Shown here: positions 25,377 through 44,866 of the stretch, one piece after another | Position numbering within the stretch: position 1 is the stretch's first letter | How the letters are laid out: each line of letters opens with the position of its first letter | Source of the DNA: Minisyncoccia bacterium | GTDB lineage: Bacteria > Patescibacteriota > Minisyncoccia > Phycocordibacterales > UBA9973 | Direction of reading: 5' to 3' | DNA: 64,000 bases | Assembly: GCA_038244685.1 (NCBI GenBank) | Contig: JBBRTD010000002.1 | Location: 2,924-66,923 of the forward strand | Notes under the pieces: generated by a model | Database searches by the model: none | Seen by the model: only the letters and a program-made list of their open reading frames with translations | Told to the model about the DNA's origin: nothing | Position numbers and translations under genes: made by a program

Positions 25377-25387
25377 TTTTAAGTTTT

Positions 25388-25909: not shown

Positions 25910-25927
25910 ATTTGTTATAATCAATTT

Positions 25928-26326: not shown

Positions 26327-26333
26327 TTACATA

Positions 26334-26366
26334 AAAAACAGCCCCGCAATAGCAGGGCTTTTTTTA
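26334..26366. terminator. Bidirectional terminator hairpin (cagcccc gcaatag cagggc + T-run)
   Basis: Inverted repeat plus T-run between convergent genes. Confidence 0.55.
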
Positions 26367-27038: not shown

Positions 27039-27283
27039 AACCTTATGCCGCTCTTAACGGACCTTTTTAATGTACAATTTAATTTTTGTTGATTCTAGCA
27101 CAGATATACATATTTGTCAAAGTTAAATTTGCAAATTACTAAAGTCTTTTTGCATGTTAATTGGTATATATTAATTTATATATAATAGTAAATATTATTG
27201 ATTTATAATCATATTGTAGTCAATTATTAATTTATGTTAATAAACCACCTTGTGTTATATTTGTGGCTTGTTATCATTTAGAT

Positions 27284-27958
27284 ATGAGGGTCTTAATTAT
27301 CGAAGATGAAGAAATTTTGGCCAAGCTCGTTAAGAAAAGTCTTGAAAGTGAAGGATACGCAGTAGATTGCTTAACCGACGGAGAGTCTGGTCAAGATAGG
27401 ATTGAGTCGAGTCATAAGGACTACGACTTAATTATCATTGATTTAATGCTTCCTAAAAAATCAGGGAGTGAAGTGTGTTTTGAAGTAAGAAAATTAGGAA
27501 TCTCCACTCCTATATTAATACTTACTGCCAAGGTCGGAGTAGAGAGTAAGGTATCGCTACTTGATACTGGAGCTGATGATTATATGCAGAAGCCATTTGA
27601 GCTGTCTGAATTATTCGCTCGAATTAGAGCGTTAACTCGTAGACCTAGCATTGCTATTCCAAACGAACTCAAGGTGGGGAATCTTACTTTATCTTCAAGT
27701 ACAAAAAAAGTATTTAAAAATAAAAAAGAAATTACTCTAACTTTAAAAGAATTTAGACTTCTTGAATATTTAATGCGGCACCCTAATCGAGTCATCGAAA
27801 GGGTAGATTTGTCTGATAATATATGGGATTTTGATTACGATTCATTATCAAATATTATCGATGTATATATAAATAGATTAAGAGATAAGCTTGATAAAGA
27901 TAGAAAGAAAAAGCTGATTGAGACAGTTCGTGGCGTTGGTTATAAATTAAAAATTTAA
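27284..27958 (+). CDS. OmpR-family response regulator (receiver + winged-helix)
   Basis: Receiver domain with D-box (IIDLMLPKKSG) and K (LTAK), and a C-terminal winged-helix domain. The start is chosen at MRVLIIEDE. Confidence 0.85.
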   Translation: MRVLIIEDEEILAKLVKKSLESEGYAVDCLTDGESGQDRIESSHKDYDLIIIDLMLPKKSGSEVCFEVRKLGISTPILILTAKVGVESKVSLLDTGADDYMQKPFELSELFARIRALTRRPSIAIPNELKVGNLTLSSSTKKVFKNKKEITLTLKEFRLLEYLMRHPNRVIERVDLSDNIWDFDYDSLSNIIDVYINRLRDKLDKDRKKKLIETVRGVGYKLKI

Positions 27959-29091: not shown

Positions 29092-29236
29092 ACAGATTTA
29101 TTATATTTAACTTATTAATATTAATACTTTAATTAAAAATAATCCATAGCGCTATTAATCTTAAATTTAACTTTGATTGTTATCCTTACTGTCCCAGATG
29201 ATTATATCTTATTAGTTGAATTAAATATTAAAAATT

Positions 29237-30238
29237 ATGGAACAACTAAACGACAGTAAAATTAGTGTCATGGGATTAGTAATAATTACGATTATCGGGG
29301 TAATTTTTATTATTGGTTATTATTTTAAATATTTGAATAATAATCACAAGGAAGTATCTGCATTGATCGTTGATAACTCTGTTGATAAATATTTGTCCTT
29401 AATTTCTACTGAGAATATGCTATCTTCTGTTGGCATTCCAAATGCAACGAATAGTCCATTACTTTGGGGTGCATATGTTGGAGATGGTCAAAATGATTTA
29501 GCTGATTTTGAAAATTTAGTTGGGAAAAAAGTTAACTTGTATGCAGATTTTGAAAGCTGGGAAAATAGTTTTCCTTCGGGGCTTTTTTCTGCCGTTGGTC
29601 AATCTGGTAAAACTCTCATTATTTTCTGGGAACCAAATTTTGGATACGATAAGATAATTAATGGCGATTACGATGATTATATTAAGCAATTTGCTGTTGA
29701 TGCCAAGAAATACTCATACCCAATTATCTTAGTCCCTTTTGATGAAATGAATTTAAATGAAGAAGCTTGGGGTTATGGTCAAAATAATAATACTGCTTCT
29801 AAATTTATTACTGCCTGGAAGCATGTTCATGATTTATTTAAAGATACACCTAATGTAGATTTTGGCTTGGCTTATAATAGTGTTTCTATTCCAAATATTA
29901 AAGGTAATTTGTTTTCTGATTATTATCCAGGGAGTGATTATGTTGATTATATTGGTTTAGATGGTTTCAGTTTTAAAAATTTATGGAAATCATTTAAAGA
30001 TATTTTTGATGATCCAATGAATAAAATATCCTCATATGATAAACCAATAATTATTTTTTCATTAGCTTCTGAAGATAGCTCTCAAAAAGCATCATGGATA
30101 AGTGATGGGCTAGGTCAACATATCAAAACTTATAAAAATATTGCTGGTTGGGTTTGGTTTAATGAGGGAGGAGTGCCCAACTGGCAGGTTAATTCAGATC
30201 AAGAATCACTAAAAGCTTTTAGGTCGATTTTGCCATAA
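29237..30238 (+). CDS. Membrane-anchored glycoside hydrolase, clan GH-A-like (GH26/GH113 mannanase-like fold)
   Basis: N-terminal TM helix. IIFWEPNF motif resembles the strand-4 acid/base segment of clan GH-A. Aromatic-rich (beta/alpha)8-like pattern. The family assignment is tentative. Confidence 0.4.
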   Translation: MEQLNDSKISVMGLVIITIIGVIFIIGYYFKYLNNNHKEVSALIVDNSVDKYLSLISTENMLSSVGIPNATNSPLLWGAYVGDGQNDLADFENLVGKKVNLYADFESWENSFPSGLFSAVGQSGKTLIIFWEPNFGYDKIINGDYDDYIKQFAVDAKKYSYPIILVPFDEMNLNEEAWGYGQNNNTASKFITAWKHVHDLFKDTPNVDFGLAYNSVSIPNIKGNLFSDYYPGSDYVDYIGLDGFSFKNLWKSFKDIFDDPMNKISSYDKPIIIFSLASEDSSQKASWISDGLGQHIKTYKNIAGWVWFNEGGVPNWQVNSDQESLKAFRSILP

Positions 30239-30253
30239 TAAATATATAAAATT

Positions 30254-31276
30254 ATGAAAATATCACTATTAGTTCCGTGTTATAACGAAGAAAAGTCATT
30301 AGAGGCGTCTATTAAGTCCTGCTTAGATCAAACACGCCCCTTCGATGAATTAATATTTGTGAATGATTGCTCAAAGGATAGTTCACCAGAAATATTGTCT
30401 CGTTATTCTGGTTTTATCTATTCGTATAGGACTCCCAAAAACACTGGTAATAAAAGCAGTGCCCAAGAGTATGGCCTACAGTTTATTAATGGAGATATTG
30501 TTGTTATGACAGATGCAGATACTTTGCTTAGTCGGACTTTTGTTGAAGAAATAGAAAAAAGTTTTAGTGATTCACAGGTTGTTGCGGTTGCGGGGCGGGT
30601 TCAAAGTATTTCTTATAATTGGCTAACTTTATGCCGAGCTTATGAATATGCTATCGGACAGAATATTCATAAAGTTGCACAAGGATATATAAACTATATT
30701 TTTGTTATGCCAGGTGCCGCTAGTGCTTTTAGAGTTGATGCTTTCCGTAAAAATATTTCTTTTGATCATGACACTCTAACTGAGGATTTAGATTTCACTT
30801 ATAAATTACATGATCGTAATTTGAAAATTATTTATAATCCAAAAGCTATTTCTTACACTCAAGATCCTGCAGATTTAAAAAACTATATTAATCAGCTCAG
30901 GCGCTGGTTTGGGGGAGGATGGCAAAATTTACTTAAACACTACACCTCTGCTCCTTTGAATTTAATTATGGCATTTGAACTTTCTTTGCTTTATTTTGAA
31001 GGTTTAATCTTTTCTATTTTATTGTTTTTGATAATTATTATTAACACCTGGATGGCCTTAATGTTACTAATCGGATATTTAGGAATTGCGACATTACTTG
31101 GTGTTTGGATGGCCATAAAAGAGAAGAGGTGGACTTTAGCTATTGCTCCTTTCCCTTATATGATTTTAATTTTTATTAATGCTTATATTTATTTAGAACA
31201 ATTTATTAAGGAAGTAATTTTTAGAAGAAGAAATTTAATTTGGTTCAAGCCAGAACGCTTGGACCTAAAACATTAA
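30254..31276 (+). CDS. Processive family-2 glycosyltransferase (IcaA/PgaC/cellulose-synthase-like) with C-terminal TM helices
   Basis: GT-A N-terminus (LVPCYNEE), DAD motif (MTDADT), TED motif (LTEDLDF) and the Q(Q/R)xRW motif QLRRW, followed by 3-4 TM helices. Confidence 0.8.
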   Translation: MKISLLVPCYNEEKSLEASIKSCLDQTRPFDELIFVNDCSKDSSPEILSRYSGFIYSYRTPKNTGNKSSAQEYGLQFINGDIVVMTDADTLLSRTFVEEIEKSFSDSQVVAVAGRVQSISYNWLTLCRAYEYAIGQNIHKVAQGYINYIFVMPGAASAFRVDAFRKNISFDHDTLTEDLDFTYKLHDRNLKIIYNPKAISYTQDPADLKNYINQLRRWFGGGWQNLLKHYTSAPLNLIMAFELSLLYFEGLIFSILLFLIIIINTWMALMLLIGYLGIATLLGVWMAIKEKRWTLAIAPFPYMILIFINAYIYLEQFIKEVIFRRRNLIWFKPERLDLKH

Positions 31277-31280
31277 TTTT

Positions 31281-31550
31281 ATGATGACACCATTTATTGG
31301 GCTTTCGACATTTATTCATATTCTTTTAATTCTTATTTATAGGCTTTTTCACTTGAAACAGGGAAGTCACTTATTTATATATAAACATCGGTCGATTAAG
31401 GCTTTATTAGGATTATTCATTATTTTTGGTATGTTTAGTTTTATTTTTGTTTCCGCAGTTTTTATGTTGCACGCTAGTGTTACAGAAGAACATTCCTCGA
31501 TTCATATTATTGGTAATTATATAAATTCATTTAATTATTATGAGTCGTAG
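31281..31550 (+). CDS. Small 2-TM membrane protein (IcaD/PgaD-like position)
   Basis: 89 aa, two hydrophobic helices, immediately downstream of the GT2 gene. Confidence 0.4.
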   Translation: MMTPFIGLSTFIHILLILIYRLFHLKQGSHLFIYKHRSIKALLGLFIIFGMFSFIFVSAVFMLHASVTEEHSSIHIIGNYINSFNYYES

Positions 31551-31583
31551 AAATATTATAAAAAGATATTAAATATATATTAT

Positions 31584-34130
31584 ATGAAAAACAAAAAATT
31601 TATTTCATTTTTAATTGTTATGTTTGTGTTTATATTTGCAAATGTTTACTCAGTTCGTACTTCTTATGCCTTGGCTCCAATCGATCCACCAAATTTAATT
31701 CAGAATTCATCAGTTGAAGTTGCGAGTGGTGGTAATCCTAGTTTATGGTTACAGTCTGGCTTCGGGGTAAATAACCGTACTTTTTCTTATCCAGTTACTG
31801 GGGTTAGTGGAGGTTCGGCTATTAATGTAAAAATTTCTTCTTATACAAGCGGTGATGCCAAATGGTCTTTCCCTGAAGTTCCAATTTTGTCTAATCGTAG
31901 TTATATTTATACCGATAATTATATGTCTGACATCTCAACAGTTTTGGTCGCTGAGTACTTTGATGCAAGCCATAATCATTTATCTTACGTAGGGTTTATT
32001 CCAGTTCCAGCCTCTCCACTAAATTCTTGGGGGACAAGCAGTACAACATTTATTACTCCTGTCGGAGCTGCTTATATGACGGTATATCATTTAATTAATA
32101 ATGTTGGCTCTTTGACGACGGATAATTTTAGTCTCACGGAAGTGCCATTACCAGAAGCTTTTGATAAGGGTTTTGTTTCTTTGACTTTTGATGATGGTTT
32201 TCTTTCTCAATATCAAAATGCTTTACCAGAATTAAGTGCTGCAAATATTAAAGGGACATTCTATGTGGTCTCTCATGCTATCTCTGGTCTTTCTATTAGT
32301 AATTCATCTTTAGAGGAGGCAGATAGTTCTGCTCTTCCTTTGGACGCTCCGCTAGATTGGACTTTCTCTGGTGGGGTAAATACGATATCTACTTATCCTG
32401 TTGCAGGACATAGCGGGCAAGGGGCTTTCGCTAGTTCATTAGCTATCGACACAAATGCCGCCTGGGCCTTTAAGCCTATCTCTGTTATTAACGACTCTGT
32501 TTATTCTTTTAGTGAGTGGTATAAAAGTACAACTAATTCAGACTTGGTTGCAATAATTAATAAAACAGATGGCTCGACAATACAAGCAGATATAACAGAT
32601 TTAGTAGGGAATACTATCGGTAGCAGTGTCAGCTTACCTTCGACCAATAATGTATGGACTCAGGTTAATGCATATTTCTATGTTCCACTTGATGCCAAAA
32701 GTGTTACGGTGGTGAACCAATTAAAAGGTATTGGTGATTTAGTTATAGATGATGTAACTCTAAGTGAGCCAAATTATATGAATTCCATTCAATTAAAATC
32801 CCTACAAACAGCTGGGCAAGAAATTGGTGGACATACGCAATCACATAAAGATTTACCTTCTATATCTTTAGCTGATGCAGAAAAAGAGGTAAGTGGCGGA
32901 CTTCATGATTTATTAACAAATGGAATAGATCCAGTCTTACCTTTTGATTATCCGTATGGAAATTATAATCAGAATATACAACAAATTGTCGAGAGCTCTG
33001 GTTTTACTTCTGGCCGAACTGTTGCTCCTGGTTTTAACGGTAAAGATACAAATAAATTTGCATTACTTTCTCAGTCAGTAAATGCAGATACACCTCTCTC
33101 TACAGTTGAAGCTTGGATAAATCAGGCAATCAGTGATCACACTTGGCTTATTTTAGTTTTCCATGAAATACAAAGTGATTTAACGAAGGCTCCATTTGGT
33201 ACGACGCCAAGTAATTTACAGTTAATAGTTGATTATATTAAAAATAATAATATTGAAACTCAAACTATTAGTGGAGGTATTAGCTTAATGAATCAAACTT
33301 TGCCGCCAGAAGTTACTTTGAATAGTATTGCTATTACGACACCCGCAACTAAGCTCTCTTACACTGTAGGTGATAGTCTAGACATAGGAGGACTTATTGT
33401 AACGGGAACATATAGTGATAATTCCACAAAAATAGAAACTTTAACATCTAGTAATGTAACCGGTTTTAATAGTGCAGTTCCTGCTGTTGATCAAGTTCTA
33501 ACTATTACAATTGGTGGCAAGACTACAACTTACAAAATAAATATTCTTGCTGTTGTTCCGCCTCCAGTTGTCTTGAATAATATATCTATTACAAATCCAG
33601 CAAGTAAGCTCGTTTATAAGGTAGGTGAATTGCTTGATATTACTGGTCTTGTTATTACAGGAACATATAGTGATAACTCAACTAAGGTTGAAACATTAGG
33701 AACTGAAAGTATAACTGGATTTAATAGTTCAAGTCCTGTAAACAGTCAGATATTAACTATTACAATAAATGGTAAAACTACAACTTACACTGTTAACATA
33801 ATTAAAGATGAAGTTGTGAATAATCATGGGTCATATTCAGGTTCGTTTTTACCAAAGGATTTGAAGCTAGTCATTAAAGACTTGCCAATTGGGAAAGTTC
33901 TTGGTGCTGAAAGTTATAGATTCAATAAAGATTTAAAATTTGGTATGAAGAATGCTAGTGTGAAGGAGTTGCAATCAAAATTTAAAAAAGAAGGTGTTTA
34001 TAAAGGTCCAATTACGGGATACTTCGGAGCCTTAACAAAAGAAGTCGTTAAAAAATACCAACAAAAGAACGAATTACCTCCAACTGGATTTGTCGGACCT
34101 CTAACAAGGGAGATATTGAATACTATATAA
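31584..34130 (+). CDS. Secreted polysaccharide deacetylase (CE4/NodB) with an inserted beta-rich domain, two Ig-like (Big_3-type) repeats and a C-terminal peptidoglycan-binding (PG_binding_1) domain
   Basis: Signal peptide. NodB motifs TFDDG, HTQSHKDL and LPFDYPYG. Two ~85-aa repeats (ITTPATKLSYTVGDSLDIGGLIVTGTYSDNSTKIETL / ITNPASKLVYKVGELLDITGLVITGTYSDNSTKVETL). C-terminus ...SVKELQSKFKKEGVYKGPITGYFGALTKEVVKKYQQKNELPPTGFVGPLT. Confidence 0.8.
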   Translation: MKNKKFISFLIVMFVFIFANVYSVRTSYALAPIDPPNLIQNSSVEVASGGNPSLWLQSGFGVNNRTFSYPVTGVSGGSAINVKISSYTSGDAKWSFPEVPILSNRSYIYTDNYMSDISTVLVAEYFDASHNHLSYVGFIPVPASPLNSWGTSSTTFITPVGAAYMTVYHLINNVGSLTTDNFSLTEVPLPEAFDKGFVSLTFDDGFLSQYQNALPELSAANIKGTFYVVSHAISGLSISNSSLEEADSSALPLDAPLDWTFSGGVNTISTYPVAGHSGQGAFASSLAIDTNAAWAFKPISVINDSVYSFSEWYKSTTNSDLVAIINKTDGSTIQADITDLVGNTIGSSVSLPSTNNVWTQVNAYFYVPLDAKSVTVVNQLKGIGDLVIDDVTLSEPNYMNSIQLKSLQTAGQEIGGHTQSHKDLPSISLADAEKEVSGGLHDLLTNGIDPVLPFDYPYGNYNQNIQQIVESSGFTSGRTVAPGFNGKDTNKFALLSQSVNADTPLSTVEAWINQAISDHTWLILVFHEIQSDLTKAPFGTTPSNLQLIVDYIKNNNIETQTISGGISLMNQTLPPEVTLNSIAITTPATKLSYTVGDSLDIGGLIVTGTYSDNSTKIETLTSSNVTGFNSAVPAVDQVLTITIGGKTTTYKINILAVVPPPVVLNNISITNPASKLVYKVGELLDITGLVITGTYSDNSTKVETLGTESITGFNSSSPVNSQILTITINGKTTTYTVNIIKDEVVNNHGSYSGSFLPKDLKLVIKDLPIGKVLGAESYRFNKDLKFGMKNASVKELQSKFKKEGVYKGPITGYFGALTKEVVKKYQQKNELPPTGFVGPLTREILNTI

Positions 34131-34233
34131 GTGAATCTAATAATTCATATAAACTTTTTATCTCTATTTTAAGAGATCTATATTATGATATTATATAATT
34201 TATAATATAGCTTAAATTATTTTATTCAGTAGA

Positions 34234-34488
34234 ATGAAAACCTTTAGTGAAAAAGTTTATGATGTCGTTCGAAATATTCCCAAAGGGAAGTTTTTGACAT
34301 ACAAAGAAGTTGCCAAGAAGGCAGGAAGTGAGAAGGCTAGTCGGGCAGTTGGAAATATTTTGCATAAAAATTTTGATCCGAAAATTCCATGCCACAGAGT
34401 CATCCGCTCTGATGGTAAATTTGGAGGGTACAATAGGGGGAGTCAAAATAAAAAAGAATTATTAAGGAAGGAAGGAGTAGTTTTTTAA
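34234..34488 (+). CDS. Methylated-DNA-protein-cysteine methyltransferase, C-terminal DNA-binding/active-site domain only (84 aa)
   Basis: PCHRVI active-site motif with a helix-turn-helix context (FLTYKEVAKKAG...RAVGNIL). Confidence 0.75.
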   Translation: MKTFSEKVYDVVRNIPKGKFLTYKEVAKKAGSEKASRAVGNILHKNFDPKIPCHRVIRSDGKFGGYNRGSQNKKELLRKEGVVF

Positions 34489-34495
34489 AATTATC

Positions 34496-34537
34496 TAAAA
34501 TCTGTTATATTCAAATAATGTCACTATCAATCGGAAT
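34496..34537 (+). repeat. Left copy of a 42-bp imperfect direct repeat (40/42 identical to 41948-41989); contains a truncated copy of the ychF start (ATG TCA CTA TCA ATC GGA ATG GCG TGA)
   Basis: taaaatctgttatattcaaATAAtgtcactatcaatcggaat versus taaaatctgttatattcaaCTCAtgtcactatcaatcggaat. Confidence 0.85.
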
Positions 34538-34826
34538 GGCGTGAGCACACCTCGACATGCTATTCCTTTCTTCTTTACCATAAAGCTTCCTCCCATTCAA
34601 AAAAGGGGAATAGATTATGGATTTAGGTCAATAAAAACTATTTTAAAATAAGTATATTTATAGATAGTAGGTTTTTCCTATTTTTTGTGGCAATTTTTCT
34701 GCCCATATTTCGGTCAAATTTTAGAGAGAGGGGGTCACCCCTTCGCTTAGGCCCCCGCCTGTGTTTTTAAAATAAGTAGTGGTACCTGTGTCTAGGGATG
34801 TGTATTTTAAAAGGTTAATTTAATGG

Positions 34827-36884
34827 TTGGAAAATAGCCCTTTTTATGTCATTATTAAGGAATATATGGAATCATCAAAAAATAAAAAGACATCTGTAAA
34901 GTCATTAAAAAGTAATGTTAATGAAAGAGGGTTACGTACTGTGGTAAAAAATCTTCTCAAGCAAGATAAAAGACTTTGGACTTCGGAAGGTAAGTTGATT
35001 GAAAATAAATTGATTGAATTTGTACAAAAAGATGATGAAAATATTATTAAACTTCTATTAAGTGATTCCTTAACAAAAGATGCTTTTTTCCAAAAAATTT
35101 CTTCAATTTTTGTATTTAAAAAAGATGACTTTATTAACTTTGAAACGATGAGTGAGTTTTTGAATGGTTCTTATACTAATTATAGTAAACATATAGGATT
35201 GGCAAATAATTACTCTTTATTAAAAAATGCCGGTGAAGTAGTTCTGAATTTTCCATACAAGGATTGTTTTTTAGAAGGAGGGCAAGAAAAAGTAAGTGAA
35301 GGGAGAGATGAAATATTTTACAATAAAATTCTTGCAAGAGAAGAAATAAATAGACTTGAAGAAGAAAAAGTTTTTACGAACTGGATTAAATATACTGAAA
35401 AAGGGGGGAAAAAGGTGGATTCATTTGACCATAAAAAAGACAATCTTATTTTAAGAGGAAATAATTTATTAGCTTTATATTCATTGCTTCCAAAATATAG
35501 AGGACAAATAAATTTAATTTATATTGACCCACCATACAATACTGGAACAGATGATTTTAATTACAATGATAATTTTAATCATTCTAGTTGGCTAGTATTT
35601 ATGAAGAATAGATTGGAGGTAGCAAAAAAGTTATTAAGAGATGACGGTGTTATTTTTGTTCAGTGTGACGACCACGAACAAGCTTATTTGAAGGTTGTAA
35701 TGGATGAAATTTTTAATGGTGGATTTATAAATAGTATTGCTGTAAAAATGAGTGAGTTGTCTGGGACAAAAATGGCTCATTATGATAAAAAATTACCTAA
35801 AATAAAAGAATATTTATTAGTATATAAAAAAGTAACGTTTAAATTAAGAGATGTTAGAATAATAAAAACTGAGTGGGATGACGAATATAATTTGTATCTC
35901 GAGAATTTTGATGATAATTTATTAGATTTAATTACCGAGTCGGATGAAAATAAAATTGATGAAGTAAATAAAAAACTATTAAATGTAAAAATTTTAGGGA
36001 TAAAAGAAGCATTTAATAAATATAAAAATAAAAATGAAGATTTTGATGATTTTAGATTTAGGAATATAAACTTTATTGTTAGAACATCGCCATCATCCAG
36101 TGTAAAAAAAATTGCTGATATTCTTAATATCAAAAATCAAATTGTTTATGCATTGCTTTCAAAAAGAGACAAAAATATTATTATAATTCGTACAGATTAT
36201 AATAAAGCAGTAAAAGACCCAAGAATACAGATTGTCTTTGCTCGAGATTCTTTTGAACAAAAAATAGGCGATATGTGGACAGATATAAATACTACAGGTT
36301 TACATACTGAGGGGGGAGTTACTTTAGAAGGAGGAAAAAAACCCGAGAAATTACTTAACAGAATTATTGAAATGAGCACAAAAATTGGTGATATTGTTTT
36401 AGATTATCATTTAGGAAGTGGAACGACCTGTGCTGTTGCTCATAAGCTGGGTCGTAAATATATAGGTATTGAGCAATTAGACTATGGAAAAGATGACTCA
36501 GTTATAAGGTTGAACAATGTTATTAAGGGAGACAAATCAGGCATATCAGGGTTAGCTGATTGGAAAGGAGGAGGGTCATTTGTTTATGCTGAACTTGCAC
36601 AATGGAATGAAGAATATATCCAAGAAATAAAGAAAGCCAAAACAGTTAAAGATTTGACTAAAATCTATGAAAAAATGATTAAAGAAGCATTCTTTGTTTA
36701 TACTTTTGACCAATCAAAATGGAATAATAAAAAATTTGAAGAGCTTACAATTGATAACCAAAAGAAAATTCTTTTCGAGCTTCTTAATATGAATCATTTA
36801 TATATAAATTATAAAGATATAGAGGACGCGACTTATAAAATTTCTAAAGAAGATATAAAACTCAATAAAAATTTCTATGAGTAG
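34827..36884 (+). CDS. mod: Type III restriction-modification system methyltransferase (Mod), N6-adenine, beta-class
   Basis: Motif IV IYIDPPYNTG occurs before motif I (DYHLGSGTTCAVAHKLGRKYIGIE), with a target-recognition region in between. The 8-bp overlap with the downstream res gene is typical of Type III mod-res operons. Confidence 0.85.
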   Translation: MENSPFYVIIKEYMESSKNKKTSVKSLKSNVNERGLRTVVKNLLKQDKRLWTSEGKLIENKLIEFVQKDDENIIKLLLSDSLTKDAFFQKISSIFVFKKDDFINFETMSEFLNGSYTNYSKHIGLANNYSLLKNAGEVVLNFPYKDCFLEGGQEKVSEGRDEIFYNKILAREEINRLEEEKVFTNWIKYTEKGGKKVDSFDHKKDNLILRGNNLLALYSLLPKYRGQINLIYIDPPYNTGTDDFNYNDNFNHSSWLVFMKNRLEVAKKLLRDDGVIFVQCDDHEQAYLKVVMDEIFNGGFINSIAVKMSELSGTKMAHYDKKLPKIKEYLLVYKKVTFKLRDVRIIKTEWDDEYNLYLENFDDNLLDLITESDENKIDEVNKKLLNVKILGIKEAFNKYKNKNEDFDDFRFRNINFIVRTSPSSSVKKIADILNIKNQIVYALLSKRDKNIIIIRTDYNKAVKDPRIQIVFARDSFEQKIGDMWTDINTTGLHTEGGVTLEGGKKPEKLLNRIIEMSTKIGDIVLDYHLGSGTTCAVAHKLGRKYIGIEQLDYGKDDSVIRLNNVIKGDKSGISGLADWKGGGSFVYAELAQWNEEYIQEIKKAKTVKDLTKIYEKMIKEAFFVYTFDQSKWNNKKFEELTIDNQKKILFELLNMNHLYINYKDIEDATYKISKEDIKLNKNFYE

Positions 36885-39495
36885 CACTTCTTTATATCAA
36901 AAATATGATATTCGTGTAGAAGATGGGGTTATAGATGTTAGTTCTATACCATCTTTTATTTCAGATAATCTCCACTCTCGTGTTGTTTTACGACCTTATC
37001 AAGAAGAGGCACTTTCTCGTTTTATTTATTATTTTGAAAAAGATAAAAATAAACTTACTCCGGTACATCTACTTTTCAATATGGCCACAGGGACTGGTAA
37101 AACAATTATAATGTCTAGTGTAATGCTTCATCTTTATACAAAAGGATATCGAAATTTTGTATTTTTTGTTGATAAGGACAATATTGTACAAAAAACAATT
37201 GAAAATTTTACAGACAACACAAGCCCTAAATATAGTTTTTCACCATCAATAGTAATAGATGGAAAACGTGTTTTGGTTCGTAAGGTAGAGAATTTTTCAG
37301 ATAGTGATAATAAAGCAATAAATATCAAATTTAGTACTCTTGCAGGGCTACACAGTGAAATTACCTTTCCAAAAGAAGAAGGGTTATCTATGGACGATTT
37401 TAAGCTCAGAAAAACTGTATTTTTATCAGATGAAGCCCATCACGTTAATGCTTCAACAAAAAAGAAAGAATTAGATGAAGAGGAAAAATCTTGGGAATAT
37501 ACTGTAATGAAATTACTTAATTCAAATCTTGAAAATGTTTTATTGGAGTTTACTGCAACAATCGATGAAAGACACGAAAAAATAGTTGAGAAATATTCTG
37601 ATAAAATAATTTTTAAATATGACCTAAAAAGATATATAGCTGATAAATATTCTAAAGATATTTTCTTATATAAAACTCCAGAGGGGATAGATGACCGTAT
37701 TTTACATGCTCTTATTCTCTCTCAGTATCGTCGTAAGTTAGCGGGGAAATATGGGATGTCCTTTAAACCAGTTGTACTTATAAAATCTAAAACAAAAAAA
37801 GAAAGTGAAAATACTGAAATACTTTTCTATAATCTATTACAAAAATTGAAAGTAAATGATATAGAACGCATAGAAAAACAAGTAAAAGTAAATATAGATA
37901 ATAAGGTAGCAGTTAAAGCTTTTGATTTTTTTAAAAAAGAAGGTATTTCTTTTGCTGAACTTATTAAAGAACTCCAGATTGAATTTTCAAAAGAAAGAAG
38001 AATACAAATGAATGATGATAGTCAAAAAGTTGCGCAGTCTAAGCTCTTGAATTCTCTTGAAGAAGAGTCTAACAAAATTCGTGTTATTTTTCAGGTAAAA
38101 AAACTTGATGAGGGTTGGGATGTATTAAATCTTTTTGATATTGTCAGAGCATATGAGACACGAGATACTGGTACTATAACTACGTCCGAAGCTCAGCTTG
38201 TGGGAAGAGGGGCGAGATATTATCCATTTATTATTGAACCAAGCCAAGAAAAAGATAAAAGAAAATATGACGAAGAGCCAGAAAATGAACTTAGGGTTTT
38301 AGAACAACTTTATTATCATTGTCAGAATGACCATAGATATATCTCTGAAATCAAAAATGCTCTTCAAAAAACCGGAATAGATTTAGATAATAAAAAGATG
38401 ATTGAACTTAAATTAAAAGATTCTTTCAAAAAATCTTTATTTTATACCCAAGCATTTGTATATACTAATAAGCAACAAAAAAAAGATAGGAAAAATATTA
38501 AATCATTAAAAGATATAGATTTGGACAAATTAACACATACAGATTCTCTTTCAACTGGAGTATCTGGAGTAGAAGGTATTTTTGCAAATAGTACCGAAAA
38601 GACCTCATCAAATAATGTTAAAATAGTTAGCGAAAAAATTTCTGTAAAAGAAATACCTATTCACATAACGAGAACTGCTATTGATACTTTTCCATTTTTT
38701 GATTTTGCTAATTTAAAAACATATTTACCCAACATAAAAAGTCGTGATGAATTTATCACATCTGACTCATATGCCGGAAACATTCGCATTGAAATTGATG
38801 GCCCAGAAGACAGGATAAAGAATATAAAAAATGATAATGAATATTTATACTCAATTTTAATAAGAAAAGTATTTGAAGATTTGAAAAATAAGATTGTATA
38901 TAACTCTTTTGAATATGAAGGGACTGATGAATTTATGCCTTACGAGATTAACAAACTTATTAAAGATAAGATTATTCAAATTGAAGTAAATAATGAAAGT
39001 GATAAAGAAAACGGCAAAGCTATGGGTGGAACTGAAACAGAGATTCATCTTGATTTATCAAATATTGATTGGTATTCACATACTGAGAATTATGGAACAT
39101 CTGAAGAAAAGTACCTCATAAAGGCAATATTGGGATTTGTAGATTCTATCAAGAGTAAATACGACAATGTTTATCTTATTCGTAACGAGAGACAAGTAAA
39201 GATATTTGATACCAAGGGGCGTGCTATTGAACCTGATTTCTTGTTATATACTATAAAAAAGAATCAGAAAGACACCTCTTACTATCAATTATTTATTGAA
39301 CCAAAGGGAGCACACTTATTGAAAGAAGATTCTTGGAAGGAGGATTTTTTGAAAGGATTAAACAAAAAATATAAAGGAAAATCTAACTTAATTGAAACAC
39401 CAGAATATTATATATTTGGTTTGCCTTTCTTTAATGAACAAAAAACAAAACGAGAATTTGAAACTGATTTAAAAAAGAAACTCCAGCTAAAATAA
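36877..39495 (+). CDS. res: Type III restriction enzyme Res subunit (SF2 helicase + C-terminal endonuclease)
   Basis: Walker A MATGTGKT, DEAH box LSDEAHH, helicase motif VI QLVGRGAR. 872 aa. Translationally coupled to mod. Confidence 0.85.
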   Translation: MSSTSLYQKYDIRVEDGVIDVSSIPSFISDNLHSRVVLRPYQEEALSRFIYYFEKDKNKLTPVHLLFNMATGTGKTIIMSSVMLHLYTKGYRNFVFFVDKDNIVQKTIENFTDNTSPKYSFSPSIVIDGKRVLVRKVENFSDSDNKAINIKFSTLAGLHSEITFPKEEGLSMDDFKLRKTVFLSDEAHHVNASTKKKELDEEEKSWEYTVMKLLNSNLENVLLEFTATIDERHEKIVEKYSDKIIFKYDLKRYIADKYSKDIFLYKTPEGIDDRILHALILSQYRRKLAGKYGMSFKPVVLIKSKTKKESENTEILFYNLLQKLKVNDIERIEKQVKVNIDNKVAVKAFDFFKKEGISFAELIKELQIEFSKERRIQMNDDSQKVAQSKLLNSLEEESNKIRVIFQVKKLDEGWDVLNLFDIVRAYETRDTGTITTSEAQLVGRGARYYPFIIEPSQEKDKRKYDEEPENELRVLEQLYYHCQNDHRYISEIKNALQKTGIDLDNKKMIELKLKDSFKKSLFYTQAFVYTNKQQKKDRKNIKSLKDIDLDKLTHTDSLSTGVSGVEGIFANSTEKTSSNNVKIVSEKISVKEIPIHITRTAIDTFPFFDFANLKTYLPNIKSRDEFITSDSYAGNIRIEIDGPEDRIKNIKNDNEYLYSILIRKVFEDLKNKIVYNSFEYEGTDEFMPYEINKLIKDKIIQIEVNNESDKENGKAMGGTETEIHLDLSNIDWYSHTENYGTSEEKYLIKAILGFVDSIKSKYDNVYLIRNERQVKIFDTKGRAIEPDFLLYTIKKNQKDTSYYQLFIEPKGAHLLKEDSWKEDFLKGLNKKYKGKSNLIETPEYYIFGLPFFNEQKTKREFETDLKKKLQLK

Positions 39496-39498
39496 TAT

Positions 39499-39630
39499 AT
39501 GGATGAAGAAACATTTGAAATAGCTAAAGATAATGACTTAAGTTTAGATGAAGCAGAAGAGCTTCAGAGTGTTATAGAAGAGACAGGGCTTGATGCTGAT
39601 GAAGCCTTAGAAGTTATGCAAGAATTTTAA
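39499..39630 (+). CDS. Small, highly acidic 43-aa ORF (MDEETFEIAKDNDLSLDEAEELQSVIEETGLDADEALEVMQEF), not in the supplied ORF track
   Basis: ATG 4 bp after the res stop, and the stop lies 5 bp before the next gene. Net charge is about -14. Confidence 0.3.
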   Translation: MDEETFEIAKDNDLSLDEAEELQSVIEETGLDADEALEVMQEF

Positions 39631-39635
39631 TATAT

Positions 39636-39908
39636 ATGAAAAACTTTCTAAAAAGAACTTTATTTAAAATGGCTGACATTACTAATTGTGGCACCCCAAA
39701 TATAAAAATAGAAAAAGCCACGATTAAAGAAATATATGATGAAGTCATTTCTGATGTCCCATATTTAATAAAAATATCTCCAGCCTATATCCAAAGAAGG
39801 TATAAGGTTAATTATGAAATTGCATCACAGGTTATGGATTTACTTGAAGCCAATGGTTTTATAGGTCCAGCAGACGGAGCTAAACCTAGAGATATTATTA
39901 AAAGATAG
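39636..39908 (+). CDS. Stand-alone FtsK-gamma (winged-helix, KOPS-binding-type) domain protein
   Basis: KEIYDEVISDVPYLIKISPAYIQRRYKVNYEIASQVMDLLEANGFIGPADGAKPRDII matches the FtsK gamma consensus (...A...V......S.S.LQRRLRIGYNRAARLID.ME..GIVGP..GSKPREVL). Confidence 0.65.
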   Translation: MKNFLKRTLFKMADITNCGTPNIKIEKATIKEIYDEVISDVPYLIKISPAYIQRRYKVNYEIASQVMDLLEANGFIGPADGAKPRDIIKR

Positions 39909-39910
39909 AT

Positions 39911-40198
39911 ATGATTACTGATATCAAAAAACCAAAAAATAATATAGATATTGCTACCTTAATCAATCCTAGTTTAATTTGGAATGTAATTCTTTTTAAT
40001 TGTAACTGCCACACATTTGATACTGTAATTGAAGAACTGATGGAATCACTTGGTTGTTCTTATGCGAAGGCTTCTCAGTTTGCAAATGTTGCGGACCAGC
40101 TTGGCAGTGTCAAAATTTATGAAGGAGATAAGAAAAATTCTGAACGTATTGCTGATACATTAGGAAGAGCTGGTTTGATTGTGAAATTAAATCAATAA
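39911..40198 (+). CDS. ClpS-like adaptor-fold protein
   Basis: WNVILFNCNCHTFDTVIEELMESLG.SYAKASQFANVADQLGSVKIYEGDKKNSERIADTL aligns to the ClpS core ([24 protein letters not shown].Y....A.QLML.VH..G.A.........E.AE). Confidence 0.5.
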   Translation: MITDIKKPKNNIDIATLINPSLIWNVILFNCNCHTFDTVIEELMESLGCSYAKASQFANVADQLGSVKIYEGDKKNSERIADTLGRAGLIVKLNQ

Positions 40199-40203
40199 AT
40201 AAT

Positions 40204-40770
40204 ATGACTAAAAAAAGTTTAAAAGAATATTTTGATTTGGCCAAAGAACTAGAAAATAGTGGTCATGTTATTGATTCAGATTTTTTAAAAGAAAAATTAG
40301 GAGTTTCAGTTTGTAGAGCCAGTTGTTTGTTTTTTATGCTCCACAAAGGTGGATATTATAAAGATTTAGAACCACTTTCAGAGTTAAAAGAAATTCCTAA
40401 TTTAAAAGGTAAAAAAGAAGGTAAAAATAAATTTATAATTTTTACAGAAGATATGCCCCCTTATAAAGCGAATATATACTATGATGAAGAAATTTCTGAA
40501 GTAGACAAAAAACAATATGTTTCAATAGGAGTAGCTAGGGATATTAGTTTTGAAGATGTAAGACAAATAATCATATCTATTTACTGGGGCCTTAGTGAAA
40601 TTATAAAACAAACAAAAAATCATTTTATTAAGGAGCTTGAGTGTGGAAATGCTCAGTATTTCAAAGATTTTTATAAAGAGAAAGATAAAAAATATATTTT
40701 AAAGGATTTGAAAAAGACGAAATTTAAAGATATTCAAATTAAGTCAATTCTAAAATTACTAGAAATATGA
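40204..40770 (+). CDS. Hypothetical protein (188 aa, K-rich C-terminus)
   Basis: ORF only. Confidence 0.35.
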   Translation: MTKKSLKEYFDLAKELENSGHVIDSDFLKEKLGVSVCRASCLFFMLHKGGYYKDLEPLSELKEIPNLKGKKEGKNKFIIFTEDMPPYKANIYYDEEISEVDKKQYVSIGVARDISFEDVRQIIISIYWGLSEIIKQTKNHFIKELECGNAQYFKDFYKEKDKKYILKDLKKTKFKDIQIKSILKLLEI

Positions 40771-40795
40771 TATAGTTTAATTACAACTAAATAGT

Positions 40796-40958
40796 TAGAT
40801 ATCAGGAGTATGGCGAGAGCACTGGCTCAACGACCCATCAGCAACCCTTAGAGATAAGAAGGTGCTAAATCCAGCCAGATGATACACAAGTATTATCATG
40901 GAAAGATAAGACTAGTCATCTGTATCTTTCCTCTTATTAGAGGAATTTTTTAATTTAA
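40796..40958 (+). promoter_or_regulatory. SAM-I (S-box) riboswitch with intrinsic terminator, in the leader of metK
   Basis: gATATCAGGAG...GGCGAGAGCACTGGCTCAACGACCCATCAGCAACC...AAGGTGCTAAATCCAGCC...AGATGATAc matches the S-box core blocks (ATCAAGAG / GG.GGAGGGACUGGCCCGAUGAA.CCC.GCAACC / GGUGC.AAUUCC.GCAG / AGAUGAG). The P1 helix is TATCA/TGATA. A terminator (ttcctct tatt agaggaa + tttttt) lies at 40928-40951, just before metK. Confidence 0.7.
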
Positions 40959-40966
40959 TAACGTAT

Positions 40967-41932
40967 ATGAAAAAGACAGCAGAGTGTGTGAGTCCTATGC
41001 ATCCAGATAAGATCTGTGACTATATTGCAGATTGCATTTTAGATGCATATTTAGAAGGTGATAAAGAAAGTCGTTGTGCCATAGAAGTAATGGGAGGGCA
41101 CGGATTAATAACTATAAACGGGGAAGTAACCTCAAAAGCTAATCCAGATATAGAAAAAGTTGTACAAGGTTTAGTTGGGACCAACTTTAAAATAATTTCT
41201 AATATTGTTTTACAGAGCCCACAAATTGCTCAAGGTGTTGATATTGGTGGTGCTGGTGATCAAGGAATAATGAAAGGTTATGCTACTAACGAAACACCAG
41301 ACTTGTTACCACTTGAATATGTATGGGCGAGAAGTTTATGTAATTATATTTACAAGAAGCATCCATATGATGGGAAGACTCAAGTTACTATTATTGATGG
41401 ACGTATAGATACTATCGTTGCAAGTTTTCAAAATGTTTCAAAAGAAGTACTCCATAGTCTAGTTCTTGATTGGTATGGTGAGTATGCTGCACAATCTAGA
41501 AAGATATTCCAATTTAATATTTTTGTTAATCCTGCTGGGGATTGGACTCAGGGAGGATTTGATGCGGATACTGGATTATCTGGAAGGAAACTTATTATAG
41601 ATAACTATGGACCAGAAATAACTATCGGTGGAGGTTCTTTCTCTGGTAAGGATTATACAAAGGTGGACCGCTCAGGTGCATATATGGCAAGAAAGATTGC
41701 TGTTGATTTATTAAAGAAACATAATGCAAAAGAAGTTTATACAAAACTTGCATATGCTATTGGTCAACCAGAACCAGTAATGGCTGTAGCAGTTATAGAT
41801 GGAGTTGAAAGTGAAATTACTGGTTATGACTTAACTCCAAGAGGAATATATAAACATTTAAAATTAGATCAAGTTGAATTTAAAAAAACTTGTAACTGGG
41901 GTCACTTTGGAAGAGATTTTGAATGGGAGTAG
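40967..41932 (+). CDS. metK: S-adenosylmethionine synthetase (compact, 321 aa)
   Basis: MHPDKICDYIADCILDAYL (compare GHPDKIADQISDAVLDAIL), GAGDQGIMKGYATNET, GGGSFSGKDYTKVDRSGAYMAR, and C-terminal GHFGRDFEWE. Confidence 0.85.
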   Translation: MKKTAECVSPMHPDKICDYIADCILDAYLEGDKESRCAIEVMGGHGLITINGEVTSKANPDIEKVVQGLVGTNFKIISNIVLQSPQIAQGVDIGGAGDQGIMKGYATNETPDLLPLEYVWARSLCNYIYKKHPYDGKTQVTIIDGRIDTIVASFQNVSKEVLHSLVLDWYGEYAAQSRKIFQFNIFVNPAGDWTQGGFDADTGLSGRKLIIDNYGPEITIGGGSFSGKDYTKVDRSGAYMARKIAVDLLKKHNAKEVYTKLAYAIGQPEPVMAVAVIDGVESEITGYDLTPRGIYKHLKLDQVEFKKTCNWGHFGRDFEWE

Positions 41933-41947
41933 ATTATCAAATTTCCT

Positions 41948-41989
41948 TAAAATCTGTTATATTCAACTCATGTCACTATCAATCGGAAT
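41948..41989 (+). repeat. Right copy of the 42-bp direct repeat; spans -22 to +20 relative to the ychF start codon
   Basis: See 34496-34537. Confidence 0.85.
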
Positions 41990-43082
41990 CGTAGGATTAC
42001 CAAATGTCGGGAAATCGACACTATTTAACGCTCTTACAAAGAAGGGTGTGCCTTGTGAGAACTATCCTTTTTGTACCATAGACCCATCTGTTGGGGTTGT
42101 GGCTGTTCCCGATGAAAGAATATGGAAACTAAGTGAATTCTCTAAATCAGCTAAAACTATACCTGCTGTTATTGAATTTGTTGATATTGCTGGTCTTGTT
42201 AAGGGTGCCTCAGAAGGTGAAGGTCTTGGAAATAAATTTTTAGCAAATATTCGTGAAGTTGATGCCATATTTGAAATGGTCCGTATTTTCCCACTAAAGA
42301 GTGATAAAGGGAACGAAATTCTTCATGTCATGGGAGATATTGATCCACTTCGAGATATAGAAATAATAAATTTAGAGTTGATACTTGCTGATTTAGAAAC
42401 TGTTGTAAAAAGGAAAAATAACATTGCTAAAGATGTCCGAAAAGGAGATAAGGAATTTATCATTGAAGATGAAGCACTTGCAAAACTTATACCAGTTCTT
42501 GAAAAAGGAATGCTTGCCAATACTGTCGACTTTACAGAAAAGGAAGTTGAGAAAATAAAAATGCTCGGTCTCTTAAGTATGAAGCCATTTATTTATGGAC
42601 TTAATAAAAGAGCAGGATCAGATAATTTAGATACAGAAAATCCTGAAATTTTTAAAGAACTTACAGATTATATAGAAAGTATGGGTTCACGCTATGTTGT
42701 AATAGACGCAAAAGTTGAAGATGAATTAAAAGATTTCGAAGGTGAAGAAAAAGAGATGTTCCGCAAGGAATTAGGTGGAGAAGATGATGGAATAAATAAT
42801 CTAATAACTGAAGGGTATAAACTTTTAGGTCTCGACACCTATTTTACAACAGGAGAGGATGAGACTAGAGCTTGGACAATTAAAAAAGGTAGCACAGCGC
42901 CTGTGGCAGGAATGGCCATTCATACAGATTTCAAAGATAAATTTATTCGGGCTGAAGTTGTATTCTGGAAAGATTTACTTGAATCTGGAAGTTATGGAGA
43001 GGCTCGCTCAAAAGGAAAAGTGAAAACCGAAGGGAAGGAATATATAGTAAAAAATGGAGATGTAATTGAATTTAAGATTTAA
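41970..43082 (+). CDS. ychF: Ribosome-binding ATPase YchF (Obg-like, Ola1)
   Basis: MSLSIGIVGLPNVGKSTLFNALTK...CENYPFCTIDPSVGVVAVPDER plus the C-terminal TGS domain. The start is chosen at MSLSIG; the ORF track's 41874 start overlaps metK. Confidence 0.85.
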   Translation: MSLSIGIVGLPNVGKSTLFNALTKKGVPCENYPFCTIDPSVGVVAVPDERIWKLSEFSKSAKTIPAVIEFVDIAGLVKGASEGEGLGNKFLANIREVDAIFEMVRIFPLKSDKGNEILHVMGDIDPLRDIEIINLELILADLETVVKRKNNIAKDVRKGDKEFIIEDEALAKLIPVLEKGMLANTVDFTEKEVEKIKMLGLLSMKPFIYGLNKRAGSDNLDTENPEIFKELTDYIESMGSRYVVIDAKVEDELKDFEGEEKEMFRKELGGEDDGINNLITEGYKLLGLDTYFTTGEDETRAWTIKKGSTAPVAGMAIHTDFKDKFIRAEVVFWKDLLESGSYGEARSKGKVKTEGKEYIVKNGDVIEFKI

Positions 43083-44263: not shown

Positions 44264-44337
44264 CAGAGGTTGCTTAGACGTCCAACGTCGACGTAAGACG
44301 TTGTACGTCTTGGATTTGCAACCTCTGATTTTTTATT
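44264..44337. terminator. Long nested hairpin (cagaggttgc ... gcaacctctg enclosing agacgt..acgtct and caacgt..acgttg sub-stems) followed by a T-run; bidirectional terminator
   Basis: Perfect 10-bp outer stem, inner palindromic segments, then gattttttatttc. Confidence 0.65.
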
Positions 44338-44866
44338 TCTTATTAAGCTCTCTGTTTCTGTGTTCTTCTTGTTGTTTTTTAAGTTCAATTACTTCTTCTA
44401 TCAGTTTGCCCATTGTATCTTCGATTCGAGTTAATATTTCTTCGTCTTTTTTATCTTCTTTTTCTTCTTCCTCATCATCTTCTTGAATATCTTCCACATC
44501 TTCCTGAATCTCATCAACATCTTTTTGAATATCTTCCACATCTTCCTGAATCTCATCAACATCTTTTTGAATTTCCTCGACATCTTCAGCAATCTCATCA
44601 ACATCACGAGCCACAGCATGGAGCCTTCTGGCTTGACGGTTTACAGACATTTGGATAAATATGGATAGATAAATTGCTTCGAGTGAGACTATTGTTGTAA
44701 CTACAAGTAATATCTCTTCAAATGGTATACCAAAAAAATACAATACAAATGATCCAATGAATAATAATGTATGGATAAGTAGAGATTCAGTCGAGCCGAT
44801 GGAGCGAGTTGCTCTTAGTGCTATTTTTTCAATTGAATCTAGAGATTTTTTCTTTAATTGCTTCAT
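44333..44866 (-). CDS. Small 2-TM membrane protein with a tandem 14-aa acidic repeat (DV[DE]EIQ[KE]DVEDIQ...) and a poly-E/K tail
   Basis: N-terminal hydrophobic helices, then ...DVDEIAEDVEEIQKDVDEIQEDVEDIQKDVDEIQEDVEDIQEDDEEEEKEDKKDEE. Confidence 0.55.
   Translation of the reverse strand: MKQLKKKSLDSIEKIALRATRSIGSTESLLIHTLLFIGSFVLYFFGIPFEEILLVVTTIVSLEAIYLSIFIQMSVNRQARRLHAVARDVDEIAEDVEEIQKDVDEIQEDVEDIQKDVDEIQEDVEDIQEDDEEEEKEDKKDEEILTRIEDTMGKLIEEVIELKKQQEEHRNRELNKK
44470..44610. repeat. Tandem 42-bp repeat (two full units at 44489-44530 and 44531-44572, plus degenerate flanking partial units) encoding the acidic 14-aa repeats
   Basis: atcttccacatcttcctgaatctcatcaacatctttttgaat occurs twice in a row. 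Confidence 0.8.

Follow-up and report, generated by a model that had tools for sequence, protein, structure and literature searches.

The subject of this work is an island-like segment at positions 34496 to 41989 of a 64,000-nucleotide (nt) stretch of DNA, hereafter the window, from contig JBBRTD010000002.1 of a Minisyncoccia bacterium. In this segment, a Type III restriction-modification (R-M) system, several accessory genes, and a riboswitch-preceded metK lie between two direct copies of the start of ychF; all of its features described below are on the plus strand. A first-pass annotation had read the segment as a candidate site-specifically integrated element bounded by a 42-bp direct repeat, and the repeat is as it reported. 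The sequence TAAAATCTGTTATATTCAA[A/C]T[A/C]ATGTCACTATCAATCGGAAT occurs at 34496-34537 and at 41948-41989 with 40 of 42 bases matching, and both mismatched positions hold an A in the left copy and a C in the right copy. Within the window, exact matches to its first 19 nt are confined to these two sites, and by our own arithmetic about 1e-10 chance pairs of such quality would be expected in 64 kb of the same composition. Ungapped extension gives a 64-nt repeat at 86% identity (34474-34537 versus 41926-41989).

The right copy is the genuine -22 to +20 region of ychF, with the ATG at 41970. The gene is intact (41970-43082; Pfam match; 93% identity to the closest species), and its product is 370 amino acids long both here and in an independent contig (L084). 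A -35 element (TTATCA, 41934-41939) and a TG-extended -10 element (TATATT, 41958-41963) precede the ATG, and the last bases of the repeat, GGAAT (41985-41989), continue into native ychF sequence. The left copy begins 7 nt past the stop of a gene for an 84-amino-acid MGMT-type DNA-binding protein (34234-34488; Pfam DNA_binding_1, 2.6e-30). It has the same layout (-35 TTTAAA, 34484-34489; TG-extended -10 TATATT, 34506-34511; ATG at 34518; GGAAT, 34533-34537), and its frame holds ychF codons 1 to 7 before ending, so that 34518-34544 reads MSLSIGMA-stop. Both copies score as promoters, and in each, 6 nt separate the end of the -10 element from the ATG. The 42-mer consists of the ychF promoter, with its extended -10 element, and ychF codons 1 to 7; the left copy holds a displaced ychF start, as had been proposed, along with the promoter.

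The first-pass annotation had seen no recombinase in the segment, but the end of one directly follows the left copy. Positions 34538-34651 hold the cut-off 3' end of a gene for a large serine recombinase (LSR), namely 37 codons (GVSTPRHAIPFFFTIKLPPIQKRGIDYGFRSIKTILK; 111 nt, 34538-34648) and a stop codon, which lie in the +2 frame with respect to ychF. The open reading frame (ORF) at 34499-34648 matched a hidden Markov model (HMM) of LSR C-terminal tails with E=2.9e-21, and the tail was 61 to 67% identical to the extreme C termini of P0136, P0134, and P0179, the three best-matching full-length LSRs. This link was found by querying a protein database with a chimera of the LSR of locus L017 and the tail of locus L090, both described below; the tail by itself, searched against a 1.84-billion-protein representative library, returned just short relic ORFs and three repeat-rich translations. 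The same tail is fused to a ychF-like promoter and start in L029 (twice), L063, and L090/L091. Across the junction, 34533-34571 is identical to L029 5722-5760 at 38 of 39 nt, and 34549-34590 is 88% identical to L063 5676-5717, with a ychF-like promoter and start ahead of each match. The conserved peptide (NRN|GVSTPRHAIPFFFTIKLPPIQKRGIDYGF... in the window) is open in all copies in the +2 frame, and, in the frame used by the L017 LSR as it enters ychF, the copies differ mostly at third codon positions, which implies a coding sequence rather than an RNA. Since the tail HMM, the LSR C-terminal matches, and the fusion at GGAAT agree, we identify the left 42-mer and 34538-34651 from their sequence as attL (B|P'), in which a ychF B arm (34474-34537, with GGAAT as the exchange region) is joined to the severed LSR 3' end, the P' arm. 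This hybrid at the left boundary is homologous to the attL of L090/L091 and the attP of L096. The 42-bp direct repeat is two B arms, one in attL and the other (41926-41989) in an intact attB (B|B') whose B' arm is native ychF. The MGMT-type gene forms the chromosomal left flank of the scar.

Between the LSR stop and mod lies a noncoding spacer (34652-34826) with G+C-rich hairpins (GGGGGTCACCCC) and a terminator-like site at 34748-34761. It is probably the recombinase terminator together with the promoter region of the cargo, and in L096 a G+C-rich hairpin also follows the LSR stop. These features bear on another explanation, in which the ychF promoter and start were copied to drive mod and res and no mobile element was ever involved. 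That both copies are good promoters with a TG-extended -10 element, and that the left one is oriented toward mod, would fit such a duplication. It leaves the LSR tail at GGAAT and the recurrence of that tail in other genomes unexplained, however, and terminator-like hairpins stand between the left copy and mod, so we give it very little credence.

Two other readings of the sequence after the left copy were discarded. A structured RNA or attenuator (hairpin GGAATGGCGTG..CATGCTATTCC, with an alternative pairing to GGAATAG) had no Rfam match and does not fit the third-position differences. A small minus-strand ORF (MVKKKGIACRG..) has no consistent start codon in L029 or L063. We also make no claim of a 5-bp outward shift of a distal motif between P and B arms, as in the LSR half-site rule: the shift came to 6 bp by our count, and B arms of other species do not conserve the motif. 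As a separate observation, P0126 is a 54-amino-acid ORF in which an N terminus, MTPEKQEYSAKSIKVLEGLEAV, is joined to the same recombinase tail (..IPFEFTIKLPPPLKRGVDYGF). We take this N terminus to be gyrB-like; if it is, the 5' end of gyrB may be a further target of related elements.

A scan of one genome per species in Nomurabacteria and Paceibacteria yielded 80 ychF loci with a best YchF identity of 93%. The ychF 5' region is uninterrupted in most of them. An LSR gene abuts ychF in 4 of the 80, and the intact elements with such a gene are L015, L017/L090, L024, and L060. In L017, a 549-amino-acid LSR overlaps the ychF start and reads into ychF in the tail frame (..NVFTEYRN|CWST..), and L015, L060, and L024 have LSR homologues at the same ychF position. 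L090 extends the L017 contig leftward to an attL at about 693-860; 16.6 kb separate this site from a 547-amino-acid LSR that overlaps the ychF start. The L090 attL consists of the native ychF promoter and ATGTCATTATCTATAGGAAT fused to GGTATGGGT.., encoding GMGTTPHFIPFSLVLKIPPPLKSGVDYGFK. The same left 11 kb recurs at 99.3% identity in L091, L093, and L095 beside another left flank gene and another B arm (ATGTTAAGTATCGGAAT), and identity with L090 starts exactly past GGAAT. The presence of the same 11 kb in two host backgrounds indicates that the L090/L091 element is mobile and that the exchange point lies at ychF codons 6-7.

A comparison of L090 with L091 (L090 11684-14919) also found this 11-kb cargo on two replication modules, one with a D5-type primase and the other with PrimPol/AAA_25. 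The recombinase region is only 92% identical between the two, and the break falls inside a truncated FtsK-gamma gene. Shared cargo on different core modules implies that cargo and core recombine separately.

The free form of such an element was also found. Contig L096 (12,011 nt) has ends that overlap by 77 nt, as is typical of circular molecules, and represents a circular 11.9-kb element. Its LSR (P0136) is full length at 579 amino acids and reads across ..CAATGTCTTCACTTTCAATCGGAAT|GGAGTGAGTACACCACGACAT.., which places attP inside the ORF, with cargo genes downstream. The long LSR forms (571-589 amino acids) end in ..YGYIPV.SNINVFT.YRNGV.TPRH..IPF.FTIKLPPPLK.GVDYGF.. as a group. Among the 120 best LSR homologues, 17 to 19 have this tail (median length, 581 amino acids), and 103 lack it (median, 548). 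Of the 40 short-form C termini inspected, most end in CRSAKRREIDAF-like peptides, which on our own reading would be the ychF P-loop region translated in the +2 frame.

Decayed members are present as well. Upstream of ychF, L029 (twice) and L063 have relic tails, and L025, L028, L061, and L078 have weaker tails of a second family; these loci combine a relic attL and some cargo with a normal ychF promoter and have no LSR. A metagenome scan added four more relic attLs, one of which (L155) has the promoter-less ancestral B arm. The four second-family loci also share a hairpin-containing sequence (CCTTACAAAATAAGG-N-GGAATTT) about 35 nt upstream of ychF, with the recombinase-tail relic 2 to 3 kb further upstream. 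ORFs were listed for L025 and L078, and in both the interval between hairpin and tail relic has just small ORFs of no known function and no recombinase. All four loci may be small elements that lack a recombinase but have kept both arms.

We propose the following model for the family. LSR mobile elements of Nomurabacteria and related Paceibacteria integrate into ychF at GGAAT, in codons 6-7, a short way ahead of the sequence for the P loop. Their attP lies within the LSR gene about 40 codons before its stop, and the LSR of the circular form ends in the conserved tail. On integration, the tail codons remain on the left, at the far side of the element, where they become joined to the ychF promoter and start that have been displaced (attL, B|P'); the shortened LSR gene abuts ychF at the right end (attR, P|B'), and the element itself gives ychF a new start codon. 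We believe, at a probability of roughly 0.7, that the segment is a decayed member of this family, which targets the ychF start in bacteria of the candidate phyla radiation (CPR; Nomurabacteria), and that its layout, attL-cargo-attB, is an unusual one. The mod and res genes, a 43-amino-acid ORF, an FtsK-gamma gene, a ClpS-like gene, an orphan, and riboswitch-metK would be what is left of the cargo. The replication and recombination core (primase, small ORFs, and LSR) and attR are absent from the window.

Integration into the 5' end of ychF, as first proposed, is thus retained in this model, but an att core bounding the element is not, because the exchange lies at the edge of the repeat. This difference separates our model from a classical island, in which a tyrosine-type element would have entered the ychF 5' end, the 42-bp repeat would be an att core restoring ychF, and the integrase would have been lost or would lie elsewhere; the circular junction would then read metK-42mer-GGCGTGAGC. 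Direct repeats that bracket defense cargo and duplicate a gene end are what such an island would leave, and elements that restore a 5' gene end have a precedent in the dusA-associated integrases. Against this, what abuts the left copy is the 3' end of a gene for a serine recombinase, and GGAAT, the point of exchange, is at the edge of the repeat rather than inside it. The right arm of intact relatives is LSR coding sequence with its own ychF-like start and no promoter copy, and no tyrosine integrase was seen in the related loci examined. We regard a classical island as improbable.

Four further origins for a repeat of this kind were rejected. At 42-64 bp, the repeat is too long for a transposase target-site duplication. 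A diversity-generating retroelement, brought to mind by the A-left/C-right mismatches, would need a reverse transcriptase, and there is none. For a group II intron, the right copy should not have its own promoter and "exon 1." Hijacking of Xer/dif by an integrative mobile element exploiting Xer recombination, a thought raised by the FtsK-gamma gene, would call for flanking 28-bp dif-like sites and does not suit a 42-mer that by eye has no dif-like dyad, no dif model having been run, and whose upstream 22 nt are the conserved ychF promoter.

All of the gene calls of the first-pass annotation between the copies hold, with Pfam, PADLOC, and Rfam in agreement. The methyltransferase Mod (34827-36884; Pfam N6_N4_Mtase, PF01555, and TypeIII_RM_meth, PF12564; PADLOC MTase_III, 2.3e-180) and the restriction subunit Res (36877-39495; Pfam ResIII, PF04851; PADLOC REase_III, 1.4e-136) are adjacent and carry the domains expected of a Type III R-M system, including the Type III-specific one in Mod. 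They are followed by the 43-amino-acid acidic ORF (39499-39630), a stand-alone FtsK-gamma winged-helix protein of 90 amino acids (39636-39908; Pfam, 3.5e-13), a ClpS-like protein of 95 amino acids (39911-40198; 7.7e-8), and a 188-amino-acid orphan (40204-40770) with no match in Pfam, PADLOC, or PHROG. Among 5.8 billion proteins, the orphan matched itself and one 74% fragment homologue, and no relatives of it were found in JGI metagenomes. A SAM-I riboswitch aptamer (S-adenosylmethionine [SAM]; 40796-40909; RF00162, 50.4 bits against a gathering score of 44.4) and a terminator-like hairpin (40928-40945) come next, the aptamer ending 57 nt upstream of metK (40967-41932). The metK product is of the short Nomurabacteria type (321 amino acids; Pfam match) and matches the phage protein family PHROG 1569 (phrog_1569, 1.5e-90).

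The intact L090 element carries a comparable set of genes. After its P' come a PLD/SNF2 protein, an Eco57I/MmeI-like enzyme, three small proteins, the 43-amino-acid ORF, and the leader and metK; a 186-amino-acid ORF, a shortened FtsK-gamma gene, a variable stretch, a D5-type primase, two small ORFs, and the LSR follow metK. A restriction system stands directly after P' in both the window and L090, which upholds the earlier view of the restriction system as mobile-element cargo. The window's 43-amino-acid ORF (77% nt identity to L017 2327-2462; directly upstream of riboswitch-metK in L090), its riboswitch-metK, and the 5' end of its FtsK-gamma gene have 72 to 77% DNA identity to parts of the L017/L090 element. 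The apparently essential metK had been seen as a difficulty for an island; the riboswitch-metK inside the intact L090 element means that metK can be island cargo. DNA homology of the metK region to L086, L087, L088, and L017 is limited to about 40747-41926 (the start varies from 40747 to 40767 by locus), which implies that riboswitch and metK move as one 1.16-kb module. The closest MetK proteins (92-93% identity) adjoin DNA methyltransferases, one in a locus with a serine recombinase and the other in a locus with phage-like genes. We infer that mod through metK arrived with the attL element, that the core was lost, and that the B arm was regained.

A side observation concerns the ClpS-like gene, which in the window lies 0.4 kb past res (36877-40198 from the start of res to the end of the ClpS-like gene). 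In L063 (1206-4523), a ClpS-like protein with 62% identity to that of the window directly follows a 1,010-amino-acid ORF that is by eye, no domain search having been made, a putative type I HsdR. The pairing of restriction subunits with a ClpS-like adaptor may be a recurrent one.

The surroundings of ychF set the frame for the boundaries of the segment. Downstream, relatives share the order ychF, Sua5-like gene, coiled-coil gene, membrane gene, and leuS; the upstream side is not conserved. In many of them, the gene immediately upstream of ychF is a homologue of a 100-amino-acid ORF of the window (25074-25376), itself located after miaA. This ancestral neighbor makes 25377-41966 a 16.6-kb nonsyntenic zone, and the segment is the right half of it. 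The zone upstream of ychF differs in nearly every species. The first-pass annotation had called boundary and mechanism unclear; attL now defines the left end, but the variable zone is larger than the segment. None of the 80 loci had the arrangement of the window, and none had another ychF start in the 10 kb around ychF. Relatives with both copies in this arrangement, or the repeat as a common intergenic motif, had been expected to speak against recent integration, and neither was seen.

The same loci gave some information on the ychF promoter. Most of the 80 have a TG-extended -10 element (tttcTGcTATATTcta) 6 to 7 nt before the ychF ATG, in a TGnTATATT-N7-ATG layout, and a TTGAAA-like -35 element. 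In eight loci (L010, L012, L039, L043, L056, L062, L069, and L080), the 100-amino-acid gene abuts ychF without a promoter, its stop lying within a few bases of the ATG; the -10 element ending about 6 to 7 nt before the ATG belongs to lineages with other upstream neighbors. A -10 element this near the ATG suggests a leaderless ychF transcript in those lineages, and the promoter-bearing form of ychF may itself be a legacy of insertions at the site.

With so variable a zone, the attL could be a true relic while the genes between it and ychF are unrelated insertions, metK being the native neighbor of ychF. Besides the variation of the upstream zone in almost all species, this would fit with the occurrence of metK in apparently chromosomal contexts, with the riboswitch-metK module swapping neighbors as a unit, with the undistinctive composition of the segment, and with the relic attLs of L029 and L063, after which come housekeeping-like genes such as CysRS. 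It accounts poorly for the 43-amino-acid ORF, riboswitch-metK, FtsK-gamma gene, and restriction system after P', all of which are found inside the mobile L090/L091 element. The two B arms, at 40 of 42 identical bases, are also closer to each other than B arms are between species, which argues for one recent event that joined both ends. We consider a scar followed by unrelated insertions unlikely, if clearly less so than a classical island.

Several points weigh against the segment being a decayed LSR element. One is the right boundary, which is B|B' instead of the P|B' expected of LSR integration; the right copy is unlike the LSR-coding P arm of L017, L096, and L097, and an extra, unobserved event must be assumed. 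Genes of the same metK type stand in apparently chromosomal contexts (L088 and L089, one of them an 89% homologue), and the metK of the window could be native. By composition, the segment does not stand out: GC is 27 to 29% in the R-M and accessory genes against 32% for the window, and in the GC and codon-usage comparison that had been suggested as a check, GC at third codon positions resembled the flanks and tetranucleotide distance was unremarkable. No empty site, with the MGMT-type gene directly followed by ychF (expected sequence ..GGAGTAGTTTTTTAAAATTATC + 42-mer + CGTAGGATTACC), was present among the 80 ychF-anchored loci, metagenomes not having been searched for it, although such a site had been predicted. 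Searches of JGI metagenomes and 5.8 billion proteins with the 188-amino-acid ORF brought up no intact relative of this cargo set. A hypothetical circle of the segment has stops in the tail frame, and nothing reads across its junction. The outer 22 nt of the 64-nt repeat match at only 15 of 22 positions, and this extension and its edge, GGAGTAG, which coincides with the metK stop, may be due to chance. Lastly, no single independent contig spans the right junction. A junction that replaced the last codon of metK at GGAGTAG was entertained, since WN-TAA ends the closest homologues, and dropped, since MetK proteins have FEWE as their most frequent C terminus.

An integrated element of the LSR type would encode, within its boundaries, an LSR with Resolvase, Recombinase, and zinc-ribbon domains. 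No tblastn match to the L017 LSR was obtained in the 64 kb, so that the last 37 codons (34538-34648) are the only LSR sequence within the boundaries, and Pfam found neither a primase-like gene nor an integrase within 34496-41989. Searches with the 188-amino-acid ORF gave no circle of this segment (expected junction, ..GAATGGGAGTAGATTATCAAATTTCCT + 42-mer + GGCGTGAGCACACC), and L096 is the circular form known for the family. By itself, the segment can probably not move. The attB of the window is still available to new integrations.

The assembly itself could be questioned, as a repeat may produce a chimeric join in a metagenome-assembled contig. Independent assemblies do break at the right junction: L083 stops at 41963, and L084 begins at 41948. 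Both agree with the window, and the two Logan contigs share 16 nt, with break positions that misfit a simple mixture of occupied and empty sites. The left junction, in contrast, recurs at 100% identity in contigs of two sequencing runs (L081 and L082), and the MGMT-type gene is contiguous with the left repeat in these two independent contigs. L083 has a B arm after metK, L084 has the CTC-variant B arm joined to ychF, and the two differing positions make the copies distinct loci. An artifact is, in our judgment, extremely unlikely.

If the segment is a decayed LSR element, three routes could have produced its right end. Aberrant excision like that of lambda gal might have released a circle of B|P' and cargo, and either a helper LSR or homologous recombination through the 42-bp B arm might then have put this circle back at an unoccupied ychF site. 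Alternatively, a later core element might have been excised from a composite, or a deletion might have been followed by gene conversion from the left copy. We also offer a speculative joint idea, which we think is probably wrong as a whole: the LSR split at its own attP would be an integration-state switch, and B|P'-cargo-B|B' cassettes such as that of the window would be satellites rather than dead scars. The conserved 40-residue tail would exist only in the free form, and its loss would alter recombinase activity, stability, or directionality; helper LSRs or homologous recombination in the B arm would move the cassettes between strains. Were satellites of this kind real, restriction systems would spread together with a riboswitch-controlled metK that secures SAM for DNA methylation.

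Two features elsewhere in the window were recorded. A tRNA-Phe gene (57397-57470) is followed by three 59-nt head-to-tail copies (99-100% identical; the whole spans 57397-57652), each with a variant of the 3' part of the tRNA (CAGTTCAAATCTCTAGTCTAGGCACA versus CAGTTCAAATCTGGGTCTAGGCACA in the gene); these could be stacked attachment-site remnants of integrations at the tRNA 3' end. At 44448-44605, a 21-nt periodic repeat lies in a minus-strand coiled-coil gene (44333-44866) and encodes an acidic heptad array (DVEEIQKDVDEIQE...).

Taken together, the locus and its relatives provide a complete, sequence-defined set of attB, attP, attL, and attR for one family, and they mark the ychF start as a recurrent integration hotspot that gathers defense cargo. 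A serine recombinase with attP in its own reading frame, from which integration removes a conserved C-terminal tail, may interest users of such enzymes in genome engineering. The travel of metK and a SAM riboswitch, usually housekeeping, on methyltransferase- and restriction-rich elements affects metabolic reconstructions of small genomes. For annotation, short ..IPFSFTIKLPPPLKSGVDYGF.. ORFs beside a gene-start fragment can be read as integration scars. Mobile elements of the CPR appear to be little described; a full-text literature search found no description of their attachment sites, and a limited search found no report of attP inside an LSR gene or of riboswitch-metK as island cargo.

Parts of this system resemble known ones. 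LSR-encoding pipolins of Bacillota are reported to integrate at ychF (Mateo-Caceres et al., NAR 2024, PMC11551731). They share with the present family LSR integration at ychF and defense cargo; here, the host is a CPR bacterium, there is no piPolB, attP lies inside the LSR ORF, and the LSR has been lost from the window copy. The Type III R-M enzymes are ordinary, like EcoP15I in their Mod and Res domains and in their overlapping, co-oriented genes, whereas the neighboring FtsK-gamma, ClpS-like, and riboswitch-metK genes lie outside that known system.

Similar in architecture are the cis-mobilizable elements (CIMEs) related to ICESt1/ICESt3 of Streptococcus thermophilus, decayed or cis-mobilizable islands that arise by deletion and tandem accretion. 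CIMEs and our segment are alike as att-bounded cargo without a recombination module beside a still-usable attachment site. CIMEs, however, depend on tyrosine integrases and identical core repeats, whereas the segment has a serine-recombinase attL (B|P') and an attB (B|B'). This pairing of attL with attB is not expected to recombine under standard LSR rules (PMC3783163).

An attP within a gene is itself known, since the change from intP to intX in Mx8 and the split integrase of SSV1 both follow from one. The repressor of mycobacteriophage BPs likewise has attP in its reading frame, and its C terminus changes on integration (PMC3694055). In all of these, as in our family, integration alters a C terminus through an attP inside the reading frame. 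The difference here is that the gene is that of the serine recombinase itself, in which a short read-through into ychF takes the place of some 40 conserved residues at the C terminus.

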